From: a virus
Lineage: Duplodnaviria; Heunggongvirae; Uroviricota; Caudoviricetes
Direction: 5' to 3' (one strand)
Virus record (IMG/VR): IMGVR_UViG_2690316346_000006
Span: 1 to 13,493 of that record
Length of the DNA stretch: 13,493 bases
Positions 1 to 13,493 of this stretch are shown here, in pieces (position 1 is the stretch's first letter; the number at the start of each line of letters is the position of its first letter). The notes beneath the pieces are model-generated. The model did not search any database, was not told the origin of the DNA, and worked only from the letters and a program-made list of their open reading frames with translations. A program made the position numbers and the translations under genes.

Positions 1-51
1 ATCGGGCATTATCTGAACATAAAACACTATCAATAAGTTGGAGTCATTACC
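1..51 (+). mobile_element. IS1 terminal fragment (insB-proximal end including the terminal inverted repeat); body of the element lies upstream of the window
   Basis: Positions 1-51 are the exact reverse complement of 9926-9976 and 13443-13493, and match the remembered IS1 end ...CATCGGGCATTATCTGAACATAAAACACTATCAATAAGTTGGAGTCATTACC. Confidence 0.85.
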
Positions 52-183
52 AAACGGTTGAAATGTATGCCGCTACTTACGGGTCCTGTAATCCTCTGAA
101 TAAACCAGAGGGAAAAGATGATTTCGACAAAATTTACCGCTTCTTGGAGGACCGCTATATCAAAAGCTTAGAGGACGCAGGGA

Positions 184-561
184 TCAAATCCCCAGTGAAG
201 TCACCATTGTCCTGAGAACTTGCAGAACGTCATGATCATAACTTCCATCCAAACCGCGACGGCGAATTGCTTCTCGTATTACCGGAAGCAGTTCGCTGGA
301 AATCTCGGTGCATATTTCACCTGATAATACGCTTGGCTCAAGTGAGAATATTGGTGAACTTACGGTCTTGGTCTCGACAGTTTCAGAGTCAGTGCCAACA
401 TTATAAAGCTCAACGAAAGCGGTCTTGATTTTCCGGGCCAGATCTTTTGCTGGCTCGCTTGCAATATCTTTCCCGATTTCTCGCAGCACAGAATGCAATG
501 TATGAGCTGCTGTTTTCTGTACATCAGACGGTAAATCTTTAAATTCCATCGTCAGCCTCAT
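184..561 (-). CDS. hypothetical protein, 125 aa, second gene of a coupled two-gene operon
   Basis: ORF track. Its ATG (559-561) overlaps the stop of the upstream ORF (561-563) as ATGA on the minus strand. An alternative ATG at 547-549 has a GAGG 8 nt upstream. No recognisable motif. Confidence 0.5.
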   Translation of the reverse strand: MRLTMEFKDLPSDVQKTAAHTLHSVLREIGKDIASEPAKDLARKIKTAFVELYNVGTDSETVETKTVSSPIFSLEPSVLSGEICTEISSELLPVIREAIRRRGLDGSYDHDVLQVLRTMVTSLGI

Positions 562-767
562 CAGTCAGTGTTTCTGGCTAACCAGCAACGCGCGCCAGAT
601 TCGGTTTTAAACGTTTTGCTTTTGGTATACGTCATGGCGGTAAACGTTCCATCCTGGTTAGGGAACACGCCGCACACCAGAGATTCGTTGTTGCCAAGAT
701 CGATAGTATCCATGCTGACCTCATTTCCCCTTAACGCCGGGGTGGCGGAACAAAAAACCTGCTGCAT
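561..767 (-). CDS. small hypothetical protein (68 aa as listed; more likely about 50 aa from the internal ATG at 711-713)
   Basis: The internal ATG is preceded on the minus strand by TGAGGTcagcATG, a good Shine-Dalgarno; the listed start at 767 has none. Coupled via ATGA to the downstream ORF. Confidence 0.45.
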   Translation of the reverse strand: MQQVFCSATPALRGNEVSMDTIDLGNNESLVCGVFPNQDGTFTAMTYTKSKTFKTESGARCWLARNTD

Positions 768-953
768 AGTTAAAGATTGAACCCTGCCGTCATGTTCTTA
801 CGCCTCGGGCTGGCTACTTAACCCCTGACCACTGTCTGGTAACTCGAAGTATTGCCCTGCATTCTGTGGGGCGGGGTGGGTTGACGCCTGAAACAATAGC
901 ATCATTATTTTTTTTGATGTAAATAGCATCGCTATTGTTTTTTGTTGGGGCAA

Positions 954-976
954 GAAAAAACCACCCTAAGGTGGTT
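954..976 (-). terminator. rho-independent terminator for the minus-strand repressor/antitoxin/toxin transcript
   Basis: Plus strand reads aaaaaACCACCctaaGGTGGTT. On the minus strand this is a 7-bp stem with a 4-nt loop followed by a U-run, about 20 bp after the ParE-like stop at 993. Confidence 0.55.
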
Positions 977-992
977 CTGTCGGCGGGAATAA

Positions 993-1283
993 TTAACTGT
1001 TTTTGCCTGGATACTGTCTTCGAGAATGCACAATATTTACTACTTCTATGCTTGATGCTGTTACTCGGTAAAGGATGATGTAGTTAGGATGAGTTACAAT
1101 TTCACGAAGACCAAGAACTCGCTCGCTTGGAGGATACAGGTAAGGATGCTCTGTGAGCGGCAAAACGGATGTTTCAATTCGAATTTTCATTCTGCGTGCT
1201 GCCGCGGGATTTTCTTTAGCTATGTAGGCTACGATCTGGCGCAAATCATCACGAGCAGATGGTAGCCATAAAACGGGTAACAT
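993..1283 (-). CDS. parE: type II toxin, ParE/RelE superfamily
   Basis: 96 aa; sequence pattern (LPVLWLPSARDDL ... REIVTHPNYIILYRV ... VVNIVHSRRQYP) is typical of ParE-family toxins. Start overlaps the antitoxin stop (TAATG on the minus strand). Confidence 0.75.
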   Translation of the reverse strand: MLPVLWLPSARDDLRQIVAYIAKENPAAARRMKIRIETSVLPLTEHPYLYPPSERVLGLREIVTHPNYIILYRVTASSIEVVNIVHSRRQYPGKNS

Positions 1284-1477
1284 TATTCACCTCTGTGAGT
1301 TGCAGCAGCAATTTGGGCAATAATTTGTTCCATTTCCGCCATTACCTCATCATGCGGAATCGCCGGGCGGGGATCCGCGAGGCTTGCTGCTACTTTGGCC
1401 CGCAGCCATTCGTTGTAACTATTTTCTTGCTCAACTGTCTCAAATTCTGAAACCATTGGGGAAAGGACTGTACTCAT
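1283..1477 (-). CDS. paaA: small antitoxin, PaaA2-like, partner of the ParE-like toxin
   Basis: 64 aa, directly upstream of and overlapping the toxin gene. Segment SPMVSEFETVEQENSYNEWLRAKVAASLADPRPAIPHDEV matches my recollection of PaaA2 from the O157 paaR2-paaA2-parE2 system. AGGAGA lies 10 nt upstream of the ATG. Confidence 0.65.
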   Translation of the reverse strand: MSTVLSPMVSEFETVEQENSYNEWLRAKVAASLADPRPAIPHDEVMAEMEQIIAQIAAATHRGE

Positions 1478-1496
1478 TTTACATATCTCCTCTGAT

Positions 1497-1997
1497 TTAG
1501 GCGCGACGGCCTTTTTGTGCAGCTAACCACCGCGCAACCGTACGATCCATTGATTCTTTTTTATCTTTCATCTCCTGAAGCATGTGTTCTTGATCTTCTT
1601 TCGGAAAAGCTCTGAACGTATGGATTAAATCTCGTTCCATCGGCTCTACGGCAAACGGTAGTTCATCCTCTGTTTGTTCTGTGTCTGCTGGTAATGCGAC
1701 TATGTTATCTTGCTGTGGTTCTCGACAATACATCCTTGCAATTTGCAGCAAATCTACCATGTCTGGCCTGATTGACTCAGGGGGAACTTTCAGTAAGCCA
1801 GCAAACTTTAGAACAGCCTCAAGGTTTAGTGGGGTTTGACCATTTAGGTAGTGACTTACCGCCCCTTGTGTTGAAAACCCCATAATTTCCGCCGCACGTT
1901 CCTGAGTCAATCCCAACTGAGATTTCTTTGCCATCCAGATTTCTTTCAGTCTTCTGGCGGCGTTGAGGTCGGTGTCTGACAATGATTTTCTTTTCAT
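1497..1997 (-). CDS. cI-like HTH (XRE-family) repressor, probably PaaR2/RacR-like; ORF track extends to a GTG at 2027
   Basis: HTH motif region QLGLTQERAAEIMGFSTQGAVSHYLNG. Sits divergent to a Cro-like gene with a palindromic operator between them. The ATG at 1995-1997 (MKRKSL...) is favoured over the GTG at 2027, which has no Shine-Dalgarno. Confidence 0.7.
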   Translation of the reverse strand: MKRKSLSDTDLNAARRLKEIWMAKKSQLGLTQERAAEIMGFSTQGAVSHYLNGQTPLNLEAVLKFAGLLKVPPESIRPDMVDLLQIARMYCREPQQDNIVALPADTEQTEDELPFAVEPMERDLIHTFRAFPKEDQEHMLQEMKDKKESMDRTVARWLAAQKGRRA

Positions 1998-2027
1998 ACA
2001 TCCAATTCTAATAAGATTGCTAATCAC

Positions 2028-2108
2028 TTTGAAATAGTATCACTATTTACTTTTAAAAATAACAGTGCTATTAATTATGCATTGGTAACACATCACATAG
2101 GGCGGATT
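2028..2108. promoter_or_regulatory. divergent promoter/operator region between the repressor and the Cro-like gene; contains the palindrome AAATAGT-atc-ACTATTT (2032-2048)
   Basis: AT-rich 81-bp intergenic region between divergently oriented HTH genes. A perfect 7-bp inverted repeat with a 3-bp spacer is read directly from the sequence. Confidence 0.55.
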
Positions 2109-2372
2109 ATGAATCTTGGAGAATATTTGCATCATTTTCATATAACCCAGAGTTCATTTGCTGAGATTGTTGGCGCATCCCAAGGGATGGTCAGCCACGT
2201 TATAACGGGGCGTGCAAAACTTACAGGAGAAAAAATATTACGTTGGTGTGAAGCAACGGGATGGGTGGTGACCCCACATGAGATTGACAGTAAAACCTAC
2301 CCCAACCCAACTGACGGCTTGCCTGCTGAGTTTCAGGCTAACACACAACCATCGGCGGGGGTTGATTCATGA
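2109..2372 (+). CDS. ydaS: Cro-like HTH regulator (YdaS-like); ORF track start 2082, internal ATG at 2109 preferred
   Basis: HTH motif region ITQSSFAEIVGASQGMVSHVITG. Divergent from the repressor. GGGCGG lies 5 nt upstream of the ATG at 2109. Confidence 0.65.
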   Translation: MNLGEYLHHFHITQSSFAEIVGASQGMVSHVITGRAKLTGEKILRWCEATGWVVTPHEIDSKTYPNPTDGLPAEFQANTQPSAGVDS

Positions 2373-2794
2373 AAATCAAGCATGAACACATCCGCATGGC
2401 GATGAAAGCCTGGGCGCATCCGGACGGTGAAAAAGTTCCGGCAGCTGAAATAACCAGGGTTTATTTCGAACTGGGAATGACGTTTCCGGTTCTGCATAAC
2501 GACAGCAAGCACAACACGCTTTATCTCAACACCCAAAAGATTTTCCGTTGGCTGGATAAAGACACCCCTGACGCTGTTGAAAAAATTCAGGCGTTGTTAC
2601 CTGCGATCGAAAGGGCAATGCCACCTCCGCTGGTGGCTCGAATGCGCAGCCACAGTTCAGCTTATTTTCGGGAACTGGTGGAGACGCATGAACGACTGGT
2701 GAGAGACGCTGATGATTTTGTCGCAGTGGCAATCGCCGGTTTCAATCAGATGAACCGTGGTGGCCCGGCAGGAAATGCTGTGGCAGTACATTGA
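2369..2794 (+). CDS. ydaT: YdaT-like protein (proposed CII-like switch component in Rac-type prophages)
   Basis: 141 aa beginning MKIKHEH..., which matches my recollection of the YdaT N-terminus. Start overlaps the Cro-like stop (ATGA), indicating coupling. Confidence 0.5.
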   Translation: MKIKHEHIRMAMKAWAHPDGEKVPAAEITRVYFELGMTFPVLHNDSKHNTLYLNTQKIFRWLDKDTPDAVEKIQALLPAIERAMPPPLVARMRSHSSAYFRELVETHERLVRDADDFVAVAIAGFNQMNRGGPAGNAVAVH

Positions 2795-2865
2795 CTGACA
2801 ATAGCCATATCGAATCGCTCCCGGCAACTCGTGAGTAAAAAGATTCGGTATCAGAAGAGGTGAGT

Positions 2866-3930
2866 ATGGCTAACGCCTGGCTCAGATTATGGCATGACAT
2901 GCCAAATGACCCTAAGTGGCGAACAATTGCCAGGGTGTCAGGGCAGCCAATTGCAACAGTGATGGCAGTGTATATCCACCTCCTGGTGAGCGCGTCACGA
3001 AATGTCACGCGAGGTCACATTGATGTCACGACAGAAGATTTGGCAAGTGCGCTCGACGTGACAGAAGAGGTAATTGATTCAATTTTGCAGACGATGCAGG
3101 GGCGGGTACTTGATGGTGATTTAATCACTGGATGGGAAAAACGCCAGGTGCTTAAAGAGGACAACGGCAATATTTCGCAAACCGCAAAATCTCCTGCAGA
3201 GCGCAAGAGGGCGCAGCGAGAGAGGGAAAGAAAGCGGGAACAAAATGGCGATTGTCACGGCGCGTCACGAAATGTCACGCACATGTCACGACGAGTCACG
3301 ACAGATACAGATAAAGATACAGATAAAGAAGATCAAAACACTATGGTCCATGGCGTAAAAAACGCCACGAACCAGGCAGGGGATGTTCAGACCGTCAATC
3401 CTGGTCAGCCAGCAGGCTCGACACCGGAAGCCGATTCAGCGTATGCGCTGAAAGCCGATTCGGGCGCTGTGCAGCAGGTGATGACCGCAAGGCCGGAGCA
3501 ATCACTCCAACTGCAGCAGCCTGAAGCCGATTCCGCCATTCAGCGGGAAGCCGATCGGGTAGCCCCGGAAAACACCGGGCAGCCTGTGGGACGAGTGGAT
3601 TATCCGGATGTGTTCGAACAGGTCTGGCGGGAATACCCGTTGCGTGCCGGGGCAAACCCGAAGAAATCCGCATTCAGTGCCTGGAAGGCCAGATTGCGCG
3701 AGGGGGTGCCACCAGAGACCATGCTGGATGGTGTGAGGCGTTACGCGAGATACCTGGCGGCGACCGGGAAAGCGGGAACGGAATTTGTTCAGCGAGCGAC
3801 GACGTTTTTTGGGCCGGACCGGAATTTTGAAAACCCCTGGTTGCTCCCGGTAAGCGGCACGAACAACCAGCGTTGTGTGAATCATATTTCTGAACCGGAT
3901 ACCGAAATTCCGCCGGGATTCAGGGGGTGA
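2866..3930 (+). CDS. phage replication initiator 1 (O-like / YdaU-like), with origin iterons embedded in the coding sequence
   Basis: ATG at 2866 preceded by GAGGTG (track start GTG 2860). Lies immediately upstream of a DnaC-like gene. Contains two clusters of GTCACG direct repeats. C-terminus ends IPPGFRG, as in the second initiator. Confidence 0.7.
   Translation: MANAWLRLWHDMPNDPKWRTIARVSGQPIATVMAVYIHLLVSASRNVTRGHIDVTTEDLASALDVTEEVIDSILQTMQGRVLDGDLITGWEKRQVLKEDNGNISQTAKSPAERKRAQRERERKREQNGDCHGASRNVTHMSRRVTTDTDKDTDKEDQNTMVHGVKNATNQAGDVQTVNPGQPAGSTPEADSAYALKADSGAVQQVMTARPEQSLQLQQPEADSAIQREADRVAPENTGQPVGRVDYPDVFEQVWREYPLRAGANPKKSAFSAWKARLREGVPPETMLDGVRRYARYLAATGKAGTEFVQRATTFFGPDRNFENPWLLPVSGTNNQRCVNHISEPDTEIPPGFRG
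2993..3030 (+). repeat. iteron cluster 1 of putative origin 1: four GTCACG/GTCAC repeats at 10-11 bp spacing
   Basis: Repeats begin at 2993, 3003, 3014 and 3025, read directly from the sequence. Confidence 0.6.
3254..3300 (+). repeat. iteron cluster 2 of putative origin 1: five GTCACG repeats at 10-11 bp spacing, followed by an ACAGATA-rich AT-rich stretch
   Basis: Repeats begin at 3254, 3264, 3274, 3285 and 3295. The roughly 45-bp unit is near-identical to cluster 1. Confidence 0.6.
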
Positions 3931-3936
3931 TGTGGC

Positions 3937-4683
3937 ATGAAAAACATTGCGGCAGCCGGGGTTCTTGAACGTATTCACAGACTTGCACCACAGGGGGCGG
4001 TTCCACCGTACCGGACGGTGGAGGAGTGGCGGGAATGGCAACTTGCTGAAGGACGAAAACGCAGCGAGGAGATTAACCGCCAGAATCGCCAGTTGCGGGT
4101 GGAAAAAATCCTGAATCGTTCGGGCATCCAGCCTCTGCACAGCAAATGCTCGTTTGCGAATTATCAGGTGCAGAACGACGGGCAAAAATACGCGCTGAGC
4201 CAGGCCAAATCCATAGCTGACGAACTGATGACCGGGTGCACGAATTTTGTGTTCAGCGGTAAAACCGGCACCGGGAAAAATCACCTTGCAGCGGCGATGG
4301 GTAACCGGCTGATGGCGAAGGGGCGCAGCGTGATTATCGTCACCGAGTCTGATGTCATGAGCGTGTTGCATGACAGCTACGACAACGGCAAATCCGGTGA
4401 AAAATTTTTACAGGAGCTTTGCGGGGTTGATTTGCTGGTCCTGGATGAAATAGGCATTCAGCGGGAGACGAAAAACGAGCAGGTGGTATTGCACCAGATA
4501 ATTGATCGCCGGACAGCATCACTGTGCAGTGTCGGGATGTTAACAAACCTGAATCATGCCGCAATGAGCACGCTTCTTGGTGAGAGGATTATGGACCGCA
4601 TGACCATGAACGGTTGTCGGTGGGTGACGTTTAACTGGGATAGCTGGCGTTCAAATGTCAGCTTTCCGGGAGTTGTGAAGTAA
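3937..4683 (+). CDS. DnaC-like helicase loader (YdaV-like), copy 1
   Basis: 248 aa with Walker A-like SGKTGTGKNHLAAA and Walker B-like DLLVLDEIG, as in DnaC. Follows the initiator with 6-bp spacing. Confidence 0.85.
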   Translation: MKNIAAAGVLERIHRLAPQGAVPPYRTVEEWREWQLAEGRKRSEEINRQNRQLRVEKILNRSGIQPLHSKCSFANYQVQNDGQKYALSQAKSIADELMTGCTNFVFSGKTGTGKNHLAAAMGNRLMAKGRSVIIVTESDVMSVLHDSYDNGKSGEKFLQELCGVDLLVLDEIGIQRETKNEQVVLHQIIDRRTASLCSVGMLTNLNHAAMSTLLGERIMDRMTMNGCRWVTFNWDSWRSNVSFPGVVK

Positions 4684-4704
4684 TTTTTGTTGGAGGATGT
4701 TTTA

Positions 4705-5430
4705 ATGGAAACTGTATTTGACGCACTGAAAGCACTGAAAAGAGCCTCTTCACATGTGGTGGCGTCCCGCCTTGGAATCAGCCGTGAAGATGCGGTCAAC
4801 GAACTGTGGAAACTGAAGCGCCGTGGTGAAGCGGATAACAAGGGTTCGATGTGGTGGCTGATTCAGGCTGGTGAAAGTGAACCAGTGTCACCGGTACCGA
4901 AAGTGACAGCGCAAATGCTGACTGAGGCGATTGAACAACATGGCCCACAAACGGCGGATGAGCTGGCACTGATGTTCGGGATTACCTCCCGCCGGGCGAA
5001 TTCATCGCTGGCCATGGCAATCAGCAAAGGGCGTCTGATTCGCGTGAATCAGGGCGGTAAATTTCGGTACTGCATACCGGGCGCTGATTTACCGGCAGAG
5101 CCGAAAGCCGCATCCATAGCGGAAACGGATGGTAAAGTCTTTCCTCAGCCAGCAGGTGTTGCGTTACCGGTACAGGAAGCTGCAACACAGGAAGAAATTA
5201 AAACAGAAACTGTGGCGGACATTGTGCAGTCGTTGCCATCGTTCACCGAAACGCAAGCGGATGACCTGGTTTTACCATCGCTGCATATGGCAAACCGCGA
5301 ACTGCGTCGGGCGAAAAGTCATGTCCAGAAGTGGGAGCGTGTCTGCGCCGCGTTGCGGGAGCTGAACAAGCACCGGGATATTGTTCGACAGATTGTCGAT
5401 TCCTCCGGTCGTATTGTGTCGGAAAAGTGA
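4705..5430 (+). CDS. hypothetical protein, possibly YdaW-like; present only in module 1
   Basis: ORF track lists a TTG start at 4687; the ATG at 4705 has GGAGG 8 nt upstream. No catalytic motif recognised. Confidence 0.55.
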
Positions 5431-5445
5431 TTGCCGGGGGCGCTT

Positions 5446-5868
5446 ATGGCAAAAGTATTTACACAGGAAGAGCGGGAAAAAATTAAGGGGCAGGTTGTTG
5501 AACTCGTACGCCAGAGTGGGCGCGAGACGTTACGACAACTGGAAGCTAAAACCGGGGCGACAAGATATTTAATAAGCGTTCTCGCCAGAGAGCTGGTTGC
5601 CAGTGGGGATGTATACAACTCTGGCTACGGGTTATTCCCGTCTGAACAGGCTCGTAAGGACTGGCAAAACGCCCGCAAAAAACTCTCGAGGGCAAAGCTG
5701 AAGAAACCATCTGTGGTTGATCCGGACCTTATCTGGTCATTACCGGACGGAGAAATACGCCGCTACGACAGACATCAGAACATAATCTGTCGCGAGTGCC
5801 GGAAGAGTGAAGTTATGCAGCGTGTACCGGCTTTCTATCAGGGTGATTTTCAGGAGGCGGTACTGTGA
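5446..5868 (+). CDS. hypothetical protein (about 140 aa), paralog of 9117-9539
   Basis: ATG at 5446 preferred over the listed TTG at 5431. The C-terminal ~90 aa are near-identical to the 9117-9539 product; the N-terminal ~50 aa are diverged. Confidence 0.6.
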   Translation: MAKVFTQEEREKIKGQVVELVRQSGRETLRQLEAKTGATRYLISVLARELVASGDVYNSGYGLFPSEQARKDWQNARKKLSRAKLKKPSVVDPDLIWSLPDGEIRRYDRHQNIICRECRKSEVMQRVPAFYQGDFQEAVL

Positions 5869-6282
5869 GTGAAATTAGCTATCAGGCTTCAATTACCGCT
5901 GGCATTCGCATCAAAGGAGAGGAGCATGGAAATAAAACCAGAAGATGAGTTAAGCAATATTGTTTTATTTCCGGTAAAAGAGGATAACCCTCGTAATCAG
6001 GTTAATTTTCTTTATGAGCCATCGGAAAGACCATATTGCCATCACGCTTCTGTCCGGGTTGACGAAAAAGAGCGTCAGGTCCGCTGTAAAATCTGCGGTG
6101 CGGTTGTGGAGCCGTTTGACTGGATGCTCTCTGTGGCGAAAAGAGAAACCAGACTGGCAGATGATGTAAGGCTCTTGCGCCAGGAGGAGCGGGAAAGGCG
6201 AAAAAATATAGAAAAGCTAATCCAGATTGAGCGTAACGCGAAAGCGCGGATACGCAGGGCGACAAAATCCAGAACTGAATAA
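5869..6282 (+). CDS. hypothetical small protein with a putative zinc-ribbon motif (C-H-H ... C-x2-C); copy A
   Basis: Listed start is GTG at 5869. An internal ATG at 5926 has a strong Shine-Dalgarno (AAGGAGaggagcATG) and gives 118 aa. Motif YCHHASVRVDEKERQVRCKICG. Two further copies lie at 9540-9925 and 10695-11035. Confidence 0.6.
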   Translation: MKLAIRLQLPLAFASKERSMEIKPEDELSNIVLFPVKEDNPRNQVNFLYEPSERPYCHHASVRVDEKERQVRCKICGAVVEPFDWMLSVAKRETRLADDVRLLRQEERERRKNIEKLIQIERNAKARIRRATKSRTE

Positions 6283-6309
6283 TTAAATTTAGCACTGTTA
6301 AAAATTTAA
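6283..6309. repeat. AT-rich palindrome TTAAATTT-N11-AAATTTAA immediately after the stop of the zinc-ribbon gene; repeated at 11036-11062
   Basis: Read directly from the sequence; present after copies A and C, and homology between them ends just beyond it. Confidence 0.4.
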
Positions 6310-6421
6310 TCCTTAATAACCTTTTTATTCTTTGCCACGGGTTCCGTGGCGGGAGATTATGCCGCGTGAACATGAAGATGAGGTGTACTGGCAATAGCGG
6401 ACACTACCATTTGTTCTTTTT

Positions 6422-7240
6422 TTAAGCAGCCATCTGATGATATTTTTCCCTGAAGGCTGCCGGGGAGATATTCCCCAGACGAGAGTGACGACGCTGACGA
6501 TTGTAGAAAATCTCAATGTATTCCCGTATTACTGAGATGGCTTCATCCCGGTTATTAAAACGATAGTGGCTCAGGCTCTCATTTTTCAGCGTTCCCCAGA
6601 AGCTTTCCATCGGAGCGTTGTCGTAACAGTTACCTTTACGCGACATTGATGTTTTCAGACCAGACTGCTCCTGTATGACCCGGTAATCGTATGCGCAGTA
6701 CTGTGAACCTCGATCAGAGTGGTGGATTAGCCCGGCAGGTGGGCGCTGGCTCCTGAGCGCCATAAACAGGGCTTTACCTGTCAGCTCTTTTGTCATGCGC
6801 TCTCCCATGGCGTAGCCGACAATTTCGCACGTATAAACATCTTTGATGCCAGCGAGGTACAACCATCCCTCCTGTGTGGCAACATACGTCAGGTCCGCCA
6901 CCCAGACCTGATTTGGTGCTGTAGGAGCGAACGTCTGGTTCAGCAGATTTGGCGCAACTGGCAGATTGTGGTTCGAGTTCGTAGTCGCTCTGAACTTGCG
7001 TTTCTGCTTACAGCGTAGCCTTAGCTCCTTACGAAGACGTGCCAGTCGGTCACGACCAACGATGATGCCATTCTCTGCCAGCTCCGTCTGGAGCCGCCGG
7101 GTTCCATATGTTTCGCGAGTGCGGATATGTGCCACCTTAATCTCCAGTTTTAGCCGCTCATCACTTTGTTTTCTGTCTGAGGGTTCATGCTGTACCCAGT
7201 TGTAATAACCGCTCCTGGATACACCAAATACCTGACACAT
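6422..7240 (-). CDS. IS3-family transposase OrfB (DDE catalytic part), expressed as an OrfAB fusion by -1 frameshifting
   Basis: 272-aa ORF with DDE-type transposase signatures (HSDRGSQY ... conserved acidic residues) in the -1 frame relative to orfA. Confidence 0.8.
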   Translation of the reverse strand: MCQVFGVSRSGYYNWVQHEPSDRKQSDERLKLEIKVAHIRTRETYGTRRLQTELAENGIIVGRDRLARLRKELRLRCKQKRKFRATTNSNHNLPVAPNLLNQTFAPTAPNQVWVADLTYVATQEGWLYLAGIKDVYTCEIVGYAMGERMTKELTGKALFMALRSQRPPAGLIHHSDRGSQYCAYDYRVIQEQSGLKTSMSRKGNCYDNAPMESFWGTLKNESLSHYRFNNRDEAISVIREYIEIFYNRQRRHSRLGNISPAAFREKYHQMAA

Positions 7241-7275
7241 CGCTTCAATGGGAAATTGTTGTCGCCATTGTTCGA

Positions 7276-7578
7276 TTAACGCGTATTTTTCAGCGACTCC
7301 TGTGCAAAATACGCTGTTGCTTTTTTTAATATATCTCGCTCAAGGCGAGCTTCATTTAACGCCTTACGCAGTTGCAGAATTTCAGATTCCAGTTCAGCCA
7401 CCGTGCGGGAACCAGGAGTACCGAGCCCTTTTCTGGCGGCGGTAACCCATTGTCCTAAAGTGCCTTCAGGAAGAGATAATCGGGAAGCGCCTTCACTGAT
7501 CGAAAGTTGATTTTCAAGAACCGTTCTGACAGCTTCGGCTTTGAACTCTTTAGAGTAACGTTGGGTTTTTCTGCTCAT
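7276..7578 (-). CDS. IS3-family transposase OrfA (HTH part)
   Basis: 100 aa, MSRKTQRYSKEFKAEAVRTV..., which I recognise as IS600/IS3-group OrfA. Confidence 0.8.
   Translation of the reverse strand: MSRKTQRYSKEFKAEAVRTVLENQLSISEGASRLSLPEGTLGQWVTAARKGLGTPGSRTVAELESEILQLRKALNEARLERDILKKATAYFAQESLKNTR
7320..7327 (-). promoter_or_regulatory. programmed -1 ribosomal frameshift site (A AAA AAG) within the orfA/orfB overlap of the IS3-family element
   Basis: Minus-strand sequence TTAAAAAAAGC lies where orfA and orfB overlap, as is typical of IS3-family elements. Confidence 0.6.
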
Positions 7579-7698
7579 TATTAGCTCCTTCTGATGCCAT
7601 TCTATTTCAGGAAGGAGTGTCCGTTAAACTCAGGCTACCTCAGGTTATTCGCTTCTGGGCATGGGCGGATCAACAAATGATAGACGGTAATGCAGATT

Positions 7699-7950
7699 GT
7701 AACGCTCGCGGCGTTACAAAAAGTGCAATAGATCGCATCACTTTTATGTCTGGTTTTGCTGATGCGTTAATTCAGGTTGGATGGCTGGTCGAAAATGACG
7801 GAGGGCTTTCTCTACCTAACTTTGAACGTCATAACGGAAAAAGCTCTAAAAAAAACGGGCGGTTACAAACGAGCGAGTAACAAAAATACGCGAACTGAAA
7901 CGAAAAGGTAACGCTGCCAGCGTTACACAAACGGATCAAAAAGCGTTACC
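7699..7950 (+). repeat. putative origin 2 binding sites: two copies of the palindrome GTAACGC-N5-GCGTTAC (7699-7717, 7908-7926) plus half-sites at 7862-7866 and 7943-7949
   Basis: Read directly from the sequence. Located inside the linker-coding region of initiator 2, analogous to the iterons inside initiator 1 but of a different sequence. Confidence 0.45.
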
Positions 7951-7952
7951 AG

Positions 7953-8000
7953 AGGAAGAGGAAGAGGAAGAGGAAGAGGAAGAGGAAGAGGAAGAGGAAG
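7953..8000 (+). repeat. perfect tandem hexanucleotide repeat (AGGAAG)8; encodes Glu16 in the frame that appears to be coding for the initiator 2 linker
   Basis: 48 bp of uninterrupted AGGAAG units counted directly from the sequence. Confidence 0.9.
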
Positions 8001-8355
8001 ATCTAAATACTGATCTCCCCCTCGCCAAAAACGAGCGTCTAAAAAATTCGAGCCGGAGGCTATTGAGCTGCCCGATTGGTTGCCGGAAACACTCTGGCAT
8101 GAGTGGGTCCGGTTCAGACAGGCATTGCGAAAACCGATTCGAACGGAGCAGGGCGCTAACGGGGCGATACGGGAACTGGAAAAATTCCGTCAGCAGGGTT
8201 TTACACCTGAGCAGGTGATTCGACACAGCATCGCCAATGAATACCAGGGCCTGTTCGCGCCGAAAGGTGTTCGGCCTGAGACGTTGCTCCGACAGGTTAA
8301 CACCGTCTCGTTGCCGGACAGTGCGATCCCGCCAGGCTTCAGGGGGTAACGGACC

Positions 8356-9102
8356 ATGAAAAATATTGCGACAGGCGGCGTTCTGGAACGCATCCGCCGA
8401 CTGACCCCGCCACATGTAACCGCCCCATTCAGAACGGTAGCGGAGTGGCGCGAGTGGCAACTTGCTGAAGGCCAGAAACGTAGCGAGGAGATCAACCGCC
8501 TGAATCGCCAGTTGCGGGTGGAAAAAATTCTGAATCGCTCAGGCATCCAGCCGTTGCACCGTAAATGCTCGTTTGCGAATTACCAGGTGCAGAACGACGG
8601 CCAGCGATACGCGTTAAGCCAGGCGAAATCCATCGCCGATGAACTGATGACCGGGTGTACAAATTTTGCGTTCAGCGGAAAACCTGGTACCGGGAAGAAT
8701 CACTTAGCGGCAGCTATCGGGAATCGCCTGCTGAAAGACGGTCAGACAGTGATTGTGGTTACCGTGGCTGATGTTATGAGCGCCCTGCACGCCAGCTATG
8801 ACGACGGGCAGTCAGGCGAAAAATTTTTGCGGGAGCTGTGCGAAGTGGATCTGCTGGTTCTTGATGAAATTGGCATTCAGCGCGAGACGAAAAACGAGCA
8901 GGTGGTGCTGCACCAGATTGTTGATCGCCGGACAGCGTCGATGCGCAGCGTGGGGATGCTGACAAACCTGAACTATGAGGTGATGAAAACATTGCTCGGC
9001 GAGCGGGTGATGGATCGCATGGTCATGAACGGCGGGCGCTGGGTGAATTTTAACTGGGAGAGCTGGCGTCCGAATGTTAGCCATTCGAGGGTTGTTAAGT
9101 AG
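8356..9102 (+). CDS. DnaC-like helicase loader, copy 2 (roughly 85% amino-acid identity to copy 1 by eye)
   Basis: 248 aa with SGKPGTGKNHLAAA and DLLVLDEIG motifs; same length and architecture as 3937-4683. Confidence 0.85.
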   Translation: MKNIATGGVLERIRRLTPPHVTAPFRTVAEWREWQLAEGQKRSEEINRLNRQLRVEKILNRSGIQPLHRKCSFANYQVQNDGQRYALSQAKSIADELMTGCTNFAFSGKPGTGKNHLAAAIGNRLLKDGQTVIVVTVADVMSALHASYDDGQSGEKFLRELCEVDLLVLDEIGIQRETKNEQVVLHQIVDRRTASMRSVGMLTNLNYEVMKTLLGERVMDRMVMNGGRWVNFNWESWRPNVSHSRVVK

Positions 9103-9116
9103 TTTCAGGAGGATTT

Positions 9117-9539
9117 ATGGCGAAACCTTTTACTCCCGAACAGCGGGAAGAACTGAAGACGCGAATTGTGGAACTCGTGCATCAGGACGGTCGGGTCACG
9201 ATTCGGCAGTTGTCAGATGAAACAGGTATCAGTCGTGCGTCTGTCGGTCGCTTATGCATAGAACTGGTCGCAAGTGGTGATGTATATAATTCTGGCTACG
9301 GCTTATTCCCGTCTGAACAGGCTCGCAAGGACTGGCAAAGCGCCCGCAAAAAACTCTCGAGAGTAAAGGTGAGGAAACCGGTTGTTGTTGATCCGGACCT
9401 TATCTGGTCATTACCTGACGGAGAAATACGCCGCTACGACAGGCGCCTGAATATAATCTGTCGCGAGTGCCGGAAGAGCGAAGCTATGCAGCGTGTACTG
9501 GCTTTCTATCAGGGTAATTTTCAGGAGGCGATACTGTGA
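9117..9539 (+). CDS. hypothetical protein, paralog of 5446-5868 with a diverged N-terminus
   Basis: 140 aa; C-terminal region (ELVASGDVYNSGYGLFPSEQARKDWQ ... IICRECRKSE ...) nearly identical to copy 1. Confidence 0.6.
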   Translation: MAKPFTPEQREELKTRIVELVHQDGRVTIRQLSDETGISRASVGRLCIELVASGDVYNSGYGLFPSEQARKDWQSARKKLSRVKVRKPVVVDPDLIWSLPDGEIRRYDRRLNIICRECRKSEAMQRVLAFYQGNFQEAIL

Positions 9540-10007
9540 ATGAAATTAGCTATCAGGCTTCAATTACCGCTGGCATTCGCATCAAAGGAGAGGAGCATGG
9601 AAATAAAACCAGAAGATGAGTTAAGCAATATTGTTTTATTTCCGGTAAAAGAGGATAACCCACGTAATCAGGTTAATTTTCTTTATGAACCATCGGAAAG
9701 ACCATATTGCCATCACGCCTCTGTCCGGGTTGACGAAAAAGAGCGTCAGGTCCGCTGTAAAATTTGCGGTGCAGTTGTGGAGCCATTTGACTGGATGCTC
9801 TCTGTGGCGAAAAGAGAAACCAGACTGGCAGATGATGTAAGGCTATTGCGCCAGGAGGAACAGGAAAGGCGGAGAAATATAGAAAAGCTGATACAGATTG
9901 AGCGTAACGCGAAAGCGCGGATACGCGGTAATGACTCCAACTTATTGATAGTGTTTTATGTTCAGATAATGCCCGATGACTTTGTCATGCAGCTCCACCG
10001 ATTTTGA
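9540..10007 (+). pseudogene. zinc-ribbon small gene copy B, 3'-truncated at 9925 by IS1; the ORF reads on into IS1, giving a chimeric 26-aa tail
   Basis: Homology to copy A ends exactly at the IS1 end (...gcgcggatacgc|ggtaatgac). Translation continues ...ARIR then [26 protein letters not shown] from the IS1 sequence. Confidence 0.7.
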
Positions 10008-10445
10008 GAACGACAGCGACTTCCGTCCCAGCCGTGCCAGGTGCTGCCTCAGATTCAGGTTATGCCGCTCAATTCGCTGCGTATATCGCTTGCTGATTAC
10101 GTGCAGCTTTCCCTTCAGGCGGGATTCATACAGCGGCCAGCCATCCGTCATCCATATCACCACGTCAAAGGGTGACAGCAGGCTCATAAGACGCCCCAGC
10201 GTCGCCATAGTGCGTTCACCGAATACGTGCGCAACAACCGTCTTCCGGAGACTGTCATACGCGTAAAACAGCCAGCGCTGGCGCGATTTAGCCCCGACAT
10301 AGCCCCACTGTTCGTCCATTTCCGCGCAGACGATGACGTCACTGCCCGGCTGTATGCGCGAGGTTACCGACTGCGGCCTGAGTTTTTTAAGTGACGTAAA
10401 ATCGTGTTGAGGCCAACGCCCATAATGCGTGCAGTTGCCCGGCAT
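9942..10445 (-). CDS. insB: IS1 InsB (expressed as an InsAB' fusion by frameshifting)
   Basis: 167 aa, ...[62 protein letters not shown]..., recognised as IS1 InsB. Confidence 0.9.
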
Positions 10446-10639
10446 CCAACGCCATTCATGGCCATATCAATGATTTTCTGGTGCGTACCGGGTTGAGAAG
10501 CGGTGTAAGTGAACTGCAGTTGCCATGTTTTACGGCAGTGAGAGCAGAGATAGCGCTGATGTCCGGCAGTGCTTTTGCCGTTACGCACCACCCCGTCAGT
10601 AGCTGAACAGGAGGGACAGCTGATAGAAACAGAAGCCAC
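10364..10639 (-). CDS. insA: IS1 InsA
   Basis: 91 aa, [42 protein letters not shown]..., recognised as IS1 InsA. Confidence 0.9.
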
Positions 10640-10694
10640 TGGAGCACCTCAAAAACACCATCATACACTAAATCAGTAAGTTGGCAGCATCACC

Positions 10695-11035
10695 AAGATG
10701 AGTTAAGCAATATCGTTTTATTTCCGGTAAAAGAGGATGACCCTCGTAATCAGGTTAATTTTCTTTATGAGCCATCGGAAAGACCATATTGCCATCACGC
10801 CTCTGTACGGGTTGACGAAAAAGAGCGTCAGGTCCGCTGTAAAATCTGCGGTGCGGTTGTGGAGCCGTTTGACTGGATGCTCTCTGTGGCAAAAAGAGAA
10901 ACCAGACTGGCAGATGATGTAAGGCTATTGCGCCAGGAGGAACAGGAAAGGCGGAGAAATATAGAAAAGCTGATACAGATTGAGCGTAACGCGAAAGCGC
11001 GGATACGCAGGGCGACAAAATCCAGAACTGAATAA
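10695..11035 (+). pseudogene. zinc-ribbon small gene copy C, 5'-truncated (lacks the first ~5 codons); mosaic of copies A and B
   Basis: Begins abruptly at the IS1 end with aagatgagttaagc..., matching codon 6 onward of copy A. Its 5' half carries copy-A-type variants and its 3' half copy-B-type variants. Stop at 11033-11035. Confidence 0.65.
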
Positions 11036-11104
11036 TTAAATTTAGCACTGTTAAAAATTTAATCCTTAACCGGAGGGATTTCTGCACCCTCAAATCATCA
11101 GGAG

Positions 11105-11122
11105 ACCGCCCGAAAGGGCGGT
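11105..11122 (+). other. stable GC-rich hairpin with a GAAA tetraloop (ACCGCCC-gaaa-GGGCGGT), 5 nt upstream of the ATG at 11128
   Basis: Read directly from the sequence. No U-run follows, so it is not a canonical terminator; it could occlude a ribosome-binding region or stabilise an mRNA. Confidence 0.4.
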
Positions 11123-11127
11123 AATGA

Positions 11128-11346
11128 ATGGTTACATTATTTAGAAAAAAATATCCGCGAAAGAGTAGAACAACAGAATTCCTGTTTCTCATTCTGTTTA
11201 TCGTGTTGATGACACCGATATCCCCGCTAATTTTTGTCTGGATAATCGGAAAAATAATTGAGCCAGTTATTGAATTGTATAACGACGTGGTATGGGCGTC
11301 ATTCAACACACTGCACAATAAAATTAATCCGTATAAGGAAAGCTGA
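11128..11346 (+). CDS. small hydrophobic (probably membrane) protein, 72 aa
   Basis: ORF track; hydrophobic core FLFLILFIVLMTPISPLIFVWIIG. No clear Shine-Dalgarno, so the call is tentative. Confidence 0.35.
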   Translation: MVTLFRKKYPRKSRTTEFLFLILFIVLMTPISPLIFVWIIGKIIEPVIELYNDVVWASFNTLHNKINPYKES

Positions 11347-11713
11347 TATGGCACTGACGAAAAAACAACGTGCAGAACTGCGCATGAAGTTCGGTGGTCG
11401 CTGCGCTTATTGCGGCTGCGAACTTGGCGAAAAGTGGCATGCAGACCATGTAAAACCGGTCATTCGTTTTGATGGAAATATGCTTCACCAGGAACGTGAC
11501 GATATATCCAACATGGTACCAGCATGCCACCCATGCAATCTGCACAAGCATTGCAGTAGCCTGGAAGATTATCGACGAATTATCAGTGATGGTCGTCGTG
11601 AATTCCTTGCGTCCGGGAAAGGCAAAGCGCTGGTTCGTATGGGATTGGTTGAAATGAAATCTGACCCGGTTGTGTTCTGGTTTGAAAAATATCAAGAAGG
11701 GGCTACGGCATGA
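11347..11713 (+). CDS. HNH endonuclease
   Basis: ATG at 11347 with AAGGAAA upstream (ORF track extends to 11258). Motifs CAYCGC ... HADH ... N ... ACHPCNLHKH are typical of HNH nucleases. Confidence 0.75.
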
Positions 11714-12375
11714 CCACTATTACCAAAGAGCGACTGCAATGGCTGGCTAACATTTCTGGCCGCGATGATATTGACGATATAGACGGCGGTGAAATTCGTG
11801 AACTGGCGCTTATCGCTCTGGCATCACTGGAAGCAGAGCCTGTAGCGGAATGCATTGTTGAAGATGGGGGCATGTGTATTGACGGGTTCGGTGAGTATGT
11901 GGGTCACTCGCTGCCTGATGGAATGCATGAGCTTTATGCTGCCCCGCGAATGCGACAACCTGATGGATGGAAAGCCGTAGCTGTAGCGTGGAAGGTGACG
12001 TTTACTCAAGTTGACCAGGAATCTAATACGTTCACTGCTATATATTTTGACAAAGCGGAAGTTGAGTGTTGGGTACGACTGCATAAAGCATGTGATTTTC
12101 GGGCAGATATAACACCGCTTTACGCAGCGCCGGCAGTGCCGGTTGCAGTAAACGACGACATGGCTTACGCATTCCATCACGCACTGTCAGATTCATCGCT
12201 TGGCTCTGATGAAATCGAAGAAATTAAAACCGGTTTGCGTGCTGCCTTTGCCAACGTCACTATCCAACCAGAGCCGATAGTGCCGGATGAAATCGGGCCA
12301 AACGATAGTAATACGTTTGATTATGTTGATGGCTGGAACGCCTGCCGCGCTGCCATGCTTAAGGGAGATAAATAA
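11710..12375 (+). CDS. hypothetical phage protein, 221 aa, acidic
   Basis: ORF track; start overlaps the HNH stop (ATGA). No motif recognised. Confidence 0.6.
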   Translation: MTTITKERLQWLANISGRDDIDDIDGGEIRELALIALASLEAEPVAECIVEDGGMCIDGFGEYVGHSLPDGMHELYAAPRMRQPDGWKAVAVAWKVTFTQVDQESNTFTAIYFDKAEVECWVRLHKACDFRADITPLYAAPAVPVAVNDDMAYAFHHALSDSSLGSDEIEEIKTGLRAAFANVTIQPEPIVPDEIGPNDSNTFDYVDGWNACRAAMLKGDK

Positions 12376-12740
12376 TGATTAATCGAACCAAACTGGAGCA
12401 CATTCTCGAATATGCCAGGCAGCAGAAATGTATTGGGCAACTTTGTAAAATTCCACCAGGAGATATGGTTGAAATCGTGGAAATGGCCATGCGTAAGGCT
12501 GGCAACTCTCCGGTAGCTCCGGCTGGCTGGATAAGCTGTAGTGATGCAGTTCCTGCTGAATATTGCGATGTGATTCTTCTCGATGATCTCGGGAATGTAT
12601 TCCCCGGTTCCTGGGATAAGGTTTTTTGCCCCACTCGTGGCGGGAATAAGATGGCTTTTGTGGACAAAGACGGCGTTGAAGTAGAGAGCTCAACTCACTG
12701 GATGCCGCTACCGGAACCACCGCAGGAGGTGAATCAATGA
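12375..12740 (+). CDS. hypothetical phage protein with a DUF551-like C-terminus
   Basis: 121 aa; WISCSDAVP ... THWMPLPEPP resembles the DUF551 signature as I recall it. Confidence 0.6.
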   Translation: MINRTKLEHILEYARQQKCIGQLCKIPPGDMVEIVEMAMRKAGNSPVAPAGWISCSDAVPAEYCDVILLDDLGNVFPGSWDKVFCPTRGGNKMAFVDKDGVEVESSTHWMPLPEPPQEVNQ

Positions 12741-12820
12741 CCTGGCCTGAGGCATTCACCACGGTAGGAATTGCGATGGCGGTGGCGCTGGTGGTGTATT
12801 CGATTTGCCGTTGGGGTTAA
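12737..12820 (+). CDS. unlisted small ORF, 27 aa (MTWPEAFTTVGIAMAVALVVYSICRWG), predicted single transmembrane helix
   Basis: Perfect Shine-Dalgarno AGGAGGTGA 6 nt upstream of the ATG at 12737. Start overlaps the upstream stop (ATGA). A rho-independent terminator follows immediately. Below the length cut-off of the ORF track. Confidence 0.5.
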   Translation: MTWPEAFTTVGIAMAVALVVYSICRWG

Positions 12821-12825
12821 CAAAC

Positions 12826-12857
12826 AAAAACCCCGGATTGATGGTCCGGGGTTTTTG
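12826..12857 (+). terminator. rho-independent terminator (AAAAA-CCCCGGA-ttgatgg-TCCGGGG-TTTTT), potentially bidirectional
   Basis: 7-bp GC-rich stem, 7-nt loop and a T5 run, read directly from the sequence; 6 bp after the stop of the small ORF. Confidence 0.8.
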
Positions 12858-13195
12858 AAGGAAACAAAACAGAAACAGCAATTGCCGTTACCTGTTGTTA
12901 CCATGGCAAGTAAACGTATCTCAGGCGAGCGCATTGCGCCGTTCTGACGCAGATAAACTAGCCTGGATAGATGGTGCTGGCAATAAAAAATAGCGTTTTC
13001 TTATCGGTGTCGGTAAGATTGCTGCGGGTGCTTGAGGCTGTCTGCCTCGGGTATGTCACTGTAAGGCAGACAGAGAAAAGCCCCAGTTAACATTACGCGT
13101 CCTGCAAGACGCTTAACATTAATCTGAGGCCCAATCTATGTCTCACAAATGTAGGTTAGCCTCTTACGTGCCGAAAGGCAAGGAGAAGCAGGCTA

Positions 13196-13350
13196 TGAAG
13201 CAGCAAAAGGCGATGTTAATCGCCCTGATCGTCATCTGTTTAACCGTCATTGTGACGGCACTGGTAACGAGGAAAGACCTCTGCGAGGTACGAATCCGAA
13301 TCGGCCAGACGGAGGTCGCTGTTTTCGTAGACTACGAATCTAGAGAGTAA
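13196..13350 (+). CDS. hok: Hok/Gef-family type I toxin (closest by memory to HokD/RelF or HokC)
   Basis: MKQQKAMLIALIVICLTVIVTALVTRKDLCEVRIRIGQTEVAVFVDYESRE; AAGGAG lies 9 nt upstream of the ATG at 13196. The ORF track extends in frame to an ATG at 13138. Confidence 0.85.
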
Positions 13351-13442
13351 GAGTGACCAGGCGGGAGAGTAATCTCCCGCCACCTTTGATGTGTCAGGCA
13401 TCCTCAACGCACCCGCACTTAACCCGTTTCGGCGGTTTTTTT

Positions 13443-13493
13443 GGTAATGACTCCAACTTATTGATAGTGTTTTATGTTCAGATAATGCCCGAT
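13443..13493 (-). mobile_element. IS1 terminal fragment (insB-proximal end), element in minus orientation with its body downstream of the window
   Basis: Identical to 9926-9976 and the exact reverse complement of 1-51. Confidence 0.85.

Follow-up and report, generated by a model that had tools for sequence, protein, structure and literature searches.

An ordinary IS1 copy with mismatched flanks between truncated paralogous genes in a Shigella sonnei draft contig

Introduction

IS1 transposes replicatively within one molecule, and the outcome is an adjacent deletion or an inversion. An intramolecular event of this kind would give a junction like the one described here in one step, with a flank abutting the exact IS1 end. 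The element is recognized by a length of ~768 bp, imperfect terminal inverted repeats of ~23 bp, the insA and insB′ frames with an A6C frameshift site, and the zinc-ribbon/HTH domain of InsA together with the IS1 DDE domain. A simple insertion is recognized by a direct target-site duplication of 8-10 bp (usually 9), a criterion that tests the type of insertion and not the identity of the element as IS1. Homologous recombination between IS copies is a second source of rearranged flanks: direct copies yield deletions, inverted copies yield inversions, and what is left is one IS between two unrelated flanks, each half of a separate insertion, with no target duplication (PMC5009759, PMC7373316). 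The median S. sonnei chromosome has 286 IS copies, IS content varies a great deal between strains, and IS1 makes up the largest share (PMC7373316).

Scaffolding and gap closing of short-read assemblies are known to produce false joins. Paired reads of ~500 bp cannot reveal which flanks connect across the element (PMC5009759). The Sanger pipeline that combines Velvet, SSPACE and GapFiller produced 299 S. sonnei assemblies and, in the words of its authors, "can lead to false joins" (PMC5320598). By default GapFiller requires an overlap of at least 10 nt between the two extensions before it closes a gap (PMC3446322).

The window analyzed here, a stretch of 13,493 nucleotides, is the whole of the short-read draft contig CXEQ01000138.1 from the S. 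sonnei assembly GCA_001258815.1. An IS1 element within it separates two truncated copies of the same small gene. Like the products of homologous IS recombination, the IS1 element in the window lacks a target duplication and lies between flanks that are unrelated; unlike them, it has only one documented parental insertion, and the linkage across the IS is beyond short reads (PMC5009759). Like the false joins made by SSPACE and GapFiller (PMC5320598, PMC3446322), it crosses repeats internally while its ends stop at the same repeat, and it shares with them an 11-nt overlap that fits the 10-nt rule, shuffled alleles, and N gaps in a sister record. The likeness is incomplete in two respects, in that we infer the use of the Velvet/SSPACE/GapFiller pipeline for the window, and one haplotype in the window (A118+A123, described below) is not explained by k-mer extension.

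Results

The window is a composite of three loci. Positions 1-6268 are collinear with the A locus (L026/L033), 6379-9926 with the B locus and 9927-13493 with the C locus, and a single contig thereby links, via IS600 and IS1, three loci that are separate in finished genomes. On both sides of the IS1 the window is identical over kilobases to the chromosomes of finished S. sonnei genomes, that of strain 53G among them, and the B-locus segment has no mismatches to the finished genomes outside the gene copy. The features are collected in Table 1.

Table 1. Positions of the features of the 13,493-nt window
Feature	Positions	Strand	Description
Contig start	1-51		exact 51-nt match to an IS1 terminus; IS1 bounding the Qin-like A locus
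Gene copy A	5926-6282	plus	118 aa, full length, 357-bp gene, phrog_1621
yiaD-bisC intergenic DNA	6306-6378		73 bp of core chromosome, once each in 5422/5426 E. coli genomes
IS600	6379-7643	minus	1265 bp; right junction as in the O-like gene, B locus of finished genomes
B-locus segment	7644-9539	plus	3′ part of the O-like gene, DnaC-like 8356-9102, DUF977 9117-9539; identical to finished B locus
Gene copy B	9597-9926	plus	codons 1-110, cut exactly at the IS1 terminus
Read-through ORF	9597-10007	plus	136 aa = 110 gene codons + 26 codons from the IS1 end
IS1	9927-10694	minus	768 bp, complete; insA 10364-10639, insB′ 9942-10319/10445
Gene copy C	10695-11035	plus	second base of codon 6 to stop
C-locus downstream	11128-13442	plus	DUF4014, HNH endonuclease, 221-aa gene, DUF551, hok; collinear with finished genomes
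Contig end	13443-13493		51 nt of the next IS1

The size and terminal repeats of the central element, and equally its reading frames, frameshift site and domains, are those of IS1. The two ends, compared as terminal inverted repeats, agree at 18 of 23 positions, the A6C site AAAAAAC lies at IS1 position 307, and PF03811, PF12759 and PF03400 match the two minus-strand ORFs, insA and insB′. The sequence is that of the S. sonnei consensus IS1. It has 0-2 mismatches to the IS1 copies of finished S. sonnei genomes, compared with 3-10 to the annotated E. coli IS1A/IS1B. SNPs internal to the element were considered as a marker of the parental copy and were uninformative because the window IS1 equals this consensus.

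Four IS1 junctions would be expected in the isolate both for two simple insertions and for an inversion: column 387 of the gene alignment followed by GGTAATGAC; CATCACC followed by (G)CGGATACGCAGGGCG; the junction of the 5′ fragment of copy C with IS1, in which ...CCAGAAGATGAGTT is followed by GGTAATGAC; and CATCACC followed by AAGATGAGTT. In the window the gene with its ATG at 9597 is cut after codon 110; this left flank runs to 9926 and reads ...GCGCGGATACGC at its end. The right flank begins AAGATGAGTT (IS1 end followed by AAGATGAGTTAAGC) at 10695, within codon 6 of a gene of the same family. The 9-bp flanks, CGGATACGC on one side and AAGATGAGT on the other, are unrelated, and there is no target-site duplication at the window IS1. 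An earlier note on this DNA had described an IS1 between two truncated paralogs whose flanks are not a target-site duplication. The sequence confirms that arrangement with one-base shifts in the coordinates, and the flanks remain unrelated after the coordinates are corrected. The argument that a single simple insertion is insufficient to produce the window sequence also stands, and two IS1-made junctions are involved. The flank pattern is far beyond chance. The existence of a B-IS1-C DNA molecule in the cell is a separate question from whether the sequence is as described.

All three gene copies belong to phrog_1621 (E = 1e-55), a family with no assigned function. The gene had been called a zinc-ribbon gene, a label that is not upheld by the Pfam score of 21.6 bits for PF08271 (TFIIB-type), which lies below the 29-bit gathering cut-off. 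The CxHH...CxxC spacing in the gene may hint at a zinc ribbon and is only suggestive. The flanks contributed by copies B and C have 314 gene positions in common (alignment columns 74-387). Differences occur at 9 of these, all within columns 93-270. The protein encoded by copy A was found, among S. sonnei assemblies, in the window contig only. A natural allele equal to copy B was not found in E. coli, where the best match reached 97.4% across 387 bp and 98.6% across 71 bp.

The upstream fragment had been said to read into IS1 and acquire a 26-aa tail, and the ORF bears this out. Of the 118-aa protein the read-through ORF loses the last 8 residues (RATKSRTE) and nothing more. An exact look-up in the protein collection returned the 136-aa product from the window contig only. 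Truncated read-through products with tails of 10, 17, 18 and 25 residues, in both N21 and D21 forms, and the full-length D21 form were all absent from the collection, which is a weak test since drafts fragment here. The 136-aa ORF is a trivial read-through of an IS1-cut gene. The suggestion of a dominant-negative or neofunctionalized product is unsupported and was rejected because the existence of the ORF is the sole evidence for it; the tail is plain read-through of the IS1 end in place of 8 residues. Residues 98-136 of the chimeric ORF, IS1-derived tail included, match phrog_27209 (E = 3e-17), a family that may take in comparable ORFs, annotated in phages, that read through an IS1 end.

The finished S. 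sonnei genomes carry the three gene copies in three separate prophage remnants. Copy A lies in a Qin-like locus that an IS1 bounds on each side, with a methyltransferase/restriction pair after the gene. Copy B is intact; its remnant adjoins modABC, and QueH and hok come after the gene. Copy C lies in the Rac-site prophage remnant beside ttcA/dbpA. The search of related genomes for the unrearranged arrangement that the earlier note had proposed was carried out in this way, and it returned an intact B and separate A, B and C loci. In strain 53G, B is located at 0.78 Mb (+) and C at 1.95 Mb (-), a distance of ~1.17 Mb (about 1.2 Mb) in opposite orientation. Locus positions, orientations and IS flanks vary among the finished S. 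sonnei genomes.

The right junction in the window has a documented origin. In 7 finished S. sonnei genomes the junction of IS1 with AAGATGAGTT at copy C belongs to a simple insertion with the 10-bp direct repeat AAGATGAGTT, and the opposite side of this IS1 holds the first 83 bp of the gene, ending ...AAGATGAGTT. These genomes show directly that the IS1 insertion in copy C (codons 5-8, Rac-site prophage) is old and fixed. The copy C insertion in 53G and the other finished genomes agrees with the window in IS1 sequence, in right junction (IS1 followed by AAGATGAGTTAAGC) and in downstream genes. The difference is on the left, where the finished genomes have the gene's first 83 bp with the 10-bp repeat and the window has columns 1-387 of a paralogue from another locus. 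In a separate case, in one finished S. sonnei genome (L013, 10609-11873), an IS600 splits the B-locus gene copy at column 185, and the small phrog_1621 gene has been struck repeatedly by different ISs.

The left junction has no counterpart. Column 387 joined to IS1 did not occur in the fetched Shigella loci, in the finished S. sonnei loci, in any of 5426 complete E. coli genomes, or in the species-representative genomes and metagenome contigs; it was found in the window contig only. The A-IS600-B and B-IS1-C adjacencies were found in 0 of ~30 finished S. sonnei loci. Three E. coli IS1 flanks (H35, H39 and H43) that align in part to the left flank were set aside as chance similarities. The earlier proposal of two IS1 insertions followed by recombination is therefore retained in part: the right insertion is documented in 7 finished genomes, but the assumption of a faithful contig is doubtful, and the recombination may be the assembler's.

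The gene copies in the window are scrambled relative to their reference loci. The window has 20 mismatches to these loci, 17-18 of which fall inside the three gene copies. Each gene-copy mismatch is the allele of another paralogue, and several are swapped reciprocally. At columns 123, 150 and 186 the alleles of copy C in the window are those of reference B, with the IS1 junction itself being the ancestral Rac-site one. Copy B mixes reference A-, C- and B/C-type alleles, with those of reference C at 123, 150 and 186 and those of reference A at 93, 118 and 225-270. Copy A is of the A-locus type to column 354 with a B/C patch at 225-246 and is of the B/C type from 369 onward. The reciprocal swaps fit mis-phasing, since gene conversion does not produce reciprocal swaps.

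The protein forms are distributed accordingly between drafts and finished genomes. The two reference forms occur on at least 1000 contigs each, complete chromosomes included. The S. sonnei records of the mosaic forms (P0001, P0019, P0021 and P0022) are draft contigs only (91, 75, 1 and 1), and none were seen on complete S. sonnei chromosomes. The longest contigs with mosaic forms are 9.5-220 kb, and many have ENA protein accessions of the same series. All A-type/B-type mosaic combinations of the 118-aa protein occur in S. sonnei drafts, and the two commonest mosaic forms are reciprocal swaps of residue 21.

One haplotype stands apart. Copy B carries A118+A123, GGATAACCCACG, at columns 118-123 (window 9653-9664), a combination absent from the reference paralogues and from the 5426 E. 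coli genomes. Switching between k-mer paths cannot create A118+A123 because only 4 nt are shared between the sites. Per-site consensus correction or real local conversion may account for it.

Both contig ends consist of exactly 51 nt of IS1, which suggests an assembly k-mer of ~51 and an IS1 that was not resolved at these ends. IS1 is uncrossed at both contig ends, yet the internal IS1 and the 1.26-kb IS600 are traversed. An 11-bp overlap, TTAATCCTTAA (6306-6316), fuses the prophage DNA 3′ of copy A to yiaD-bisC DNA in a join that resembles the product of gap closing, and no yiaD gene accompanies it. IS600 has no target duplication in the window, where its left flank is yiaD-bisC DNA. The same IS600 is a simple insertion in the O-like gene in L007 and L008; in L009, a finished genome with a real rearrangement at this element, its left flank is different again. 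The yiaD-bisC/IS600 junction was not found in finished genomes by an IS600 transposase look-up or a pattern scan. The marks of a chimera found in the contig are an adjacency absent from finished genomes of the clone, joins that run through the multi-copy elements IS600 and IS1, and a minimal 11-bp overlap between unrelated sequences. A sister S. sonnei draft covering the A locus (L035, CWVT01000151.1) has N runs at 3552-3928 and 4095-4324 in the paralogous O/DnaC region. The ENA records of this series are scaffolds, because this "contig" holds two N runs.

Other features of the window were recorded along the way. A perfect AGAGGA hexamer array of 8.5 copies occupies 7951-8001, within the fragment of the O-like gene; the finished genomes have it at a different length, and the alignment breaks at 7971-7981. 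A ParE toxin/PaaA2 antitoxin pair (993-1477) adjoins the prophage repressor in the Qin-like locus. A hok/gef-type toxin gene (13195-13350) lies just before the terminal IS1, and hok also follows copy B in finished genomes.

Discussion

The adjacency in the window was probably made in silico, from an old insertion in copy C and a new insertion in a paralogue, the halves of which were linked by the assembler via a collapsed IS1. The window would be a gap-closed short-read scaffold of an S. sonnei isolate that carries its own new IS1 insertion in one paralogue beside the old copy C insertion. All IS1 copies would collapse in the short-read graph, and the flanks would be paralogues that are 97% identical. 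Scaffolding and gap closing would then connect the new insertion, by its left half, with the right half of the old insertion, and the gap between the linked halves would be filled with consensus IS1. The same process would use IS600 and the 11-bp overlap to place the Qin-like locus next to the B locus, and it would shuffle paralogue alleles among the three gene copies. A strain-specific IS1 event is part of this scheme because the left junction falls exactly on the IS1 terminus. The left junction would be a genuine product of transposase, as an assembler cannot have invented the exact terminus, and this counts against a pure artefact. A strain-specific IS1 end probably abuts column 387 in a copy of B/C type. 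Other points also weigh against the assembly reading. The gap-size check of GapFiller should resist a fill of ~670 nt unless the estimated gap agreed. Real rearrangements occur at these IS copies, as at the IS600 in L009, so a real one is not far-fetched. The A118+A123 haplotype does not follow from k-mer extension.

A real IS1-mediated inversion that joins B(1-387)-IS1-C(74-end) is the foremost competitor, possible but distinctly less probable than the assembly join. An IS1 could first have entered the B-locus gene at column 379-387 and later recombined with the C-locus IS1, or the C-locus IS1 could have transposed replicatively within the chromosome into the B-locus gene in one step. Either route would invert the intervening segment, because B and C lie opposite and ~1.17 Mb apart in 53G, and would leave the B-IS1-C join at one of its ends. 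The exact IS1 terminus at the left junction, the parental copy C insertion documented in finished genomes, the mutual inversion of B and C in 53G, the variation in locus position, orientation and IS flanks among finished S. sonnei genomes, and the high, strain-variable IS load of the species (PMC7373316) all agree with an inversion. It requires, however, that the partner among well over a hundred IS1 copies be exactly the one in the paralogous gene, a coincidence for which random recombination does not account, and the arrangement is found in one draft contig only. An inversion also leaves unexplained the 11-bp yiaD-bisC join, the scrambled alleles, and the crossing of the internal IS1 in a contig that stops at the terminal ones.

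The remaining routes are much less probable. An IS1 adjacent deletion would start with B directly upstream of C in the same orientation and have the left end of IS1 attack column 387. It is a single event that gives an IS1 without a target duplication, and the contig itself shows a tandem module layout, but that layout belongs to the suspect scaffold; no finished genome has B upstream of C, the 53G pair being 1.17 Mb apart and inverted, and we regard a deletion as improbable. The earlier note had also raised an IS1-mediated duplication junction, in which columns 74-387 were duplicated around a single IS1 and the copies then diverged. The outer neighbors, DUF977 on the upstream side and DUF4014 on the downstream side, are the natural ones of an uninterrupted prophage, but they come from two different loci. 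The 9/314 differences in an otherwise clonal genome, together with the old 10-bp duplication that the right junction has as its own in finished genomes, with a different left partner, lead to rejection of this proposal, which we consider highly improbable. Very little credence is likewise given to the idea that the adjacency is real, that the location of both IS1 flanks in paralogues of one 357-bp gene is no accident, and that pairing of the homologous flanks guided the old IS1, or the partner with which it recombined, to the paralogous gene, in a homology-assisted choice of target by a DDE insertion sequence. If this were true, a C-terminally altered phrog_1621 protein would be expressed from the B locus.

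A draft contig that crosses a multi-copy IS between paralogous flanks is not to be taken as chromosome structure, and clusters of "SNPs" confined to the paralogous prophage genes of a clonal pathogen are a warning of assembly mixing. The mismatched flanks most likely reflect a draft assembly that joined two loci across a repeat or, at most, a routine IS1 rearrangement. The element is an ordinary IS1 copy in S. sonnei prophage remnants and is not new biology. IS1 insertions, recombination between ISs, and truncated genes with read-through are routine in Shigella, and their occurrence here carries little biological weight.
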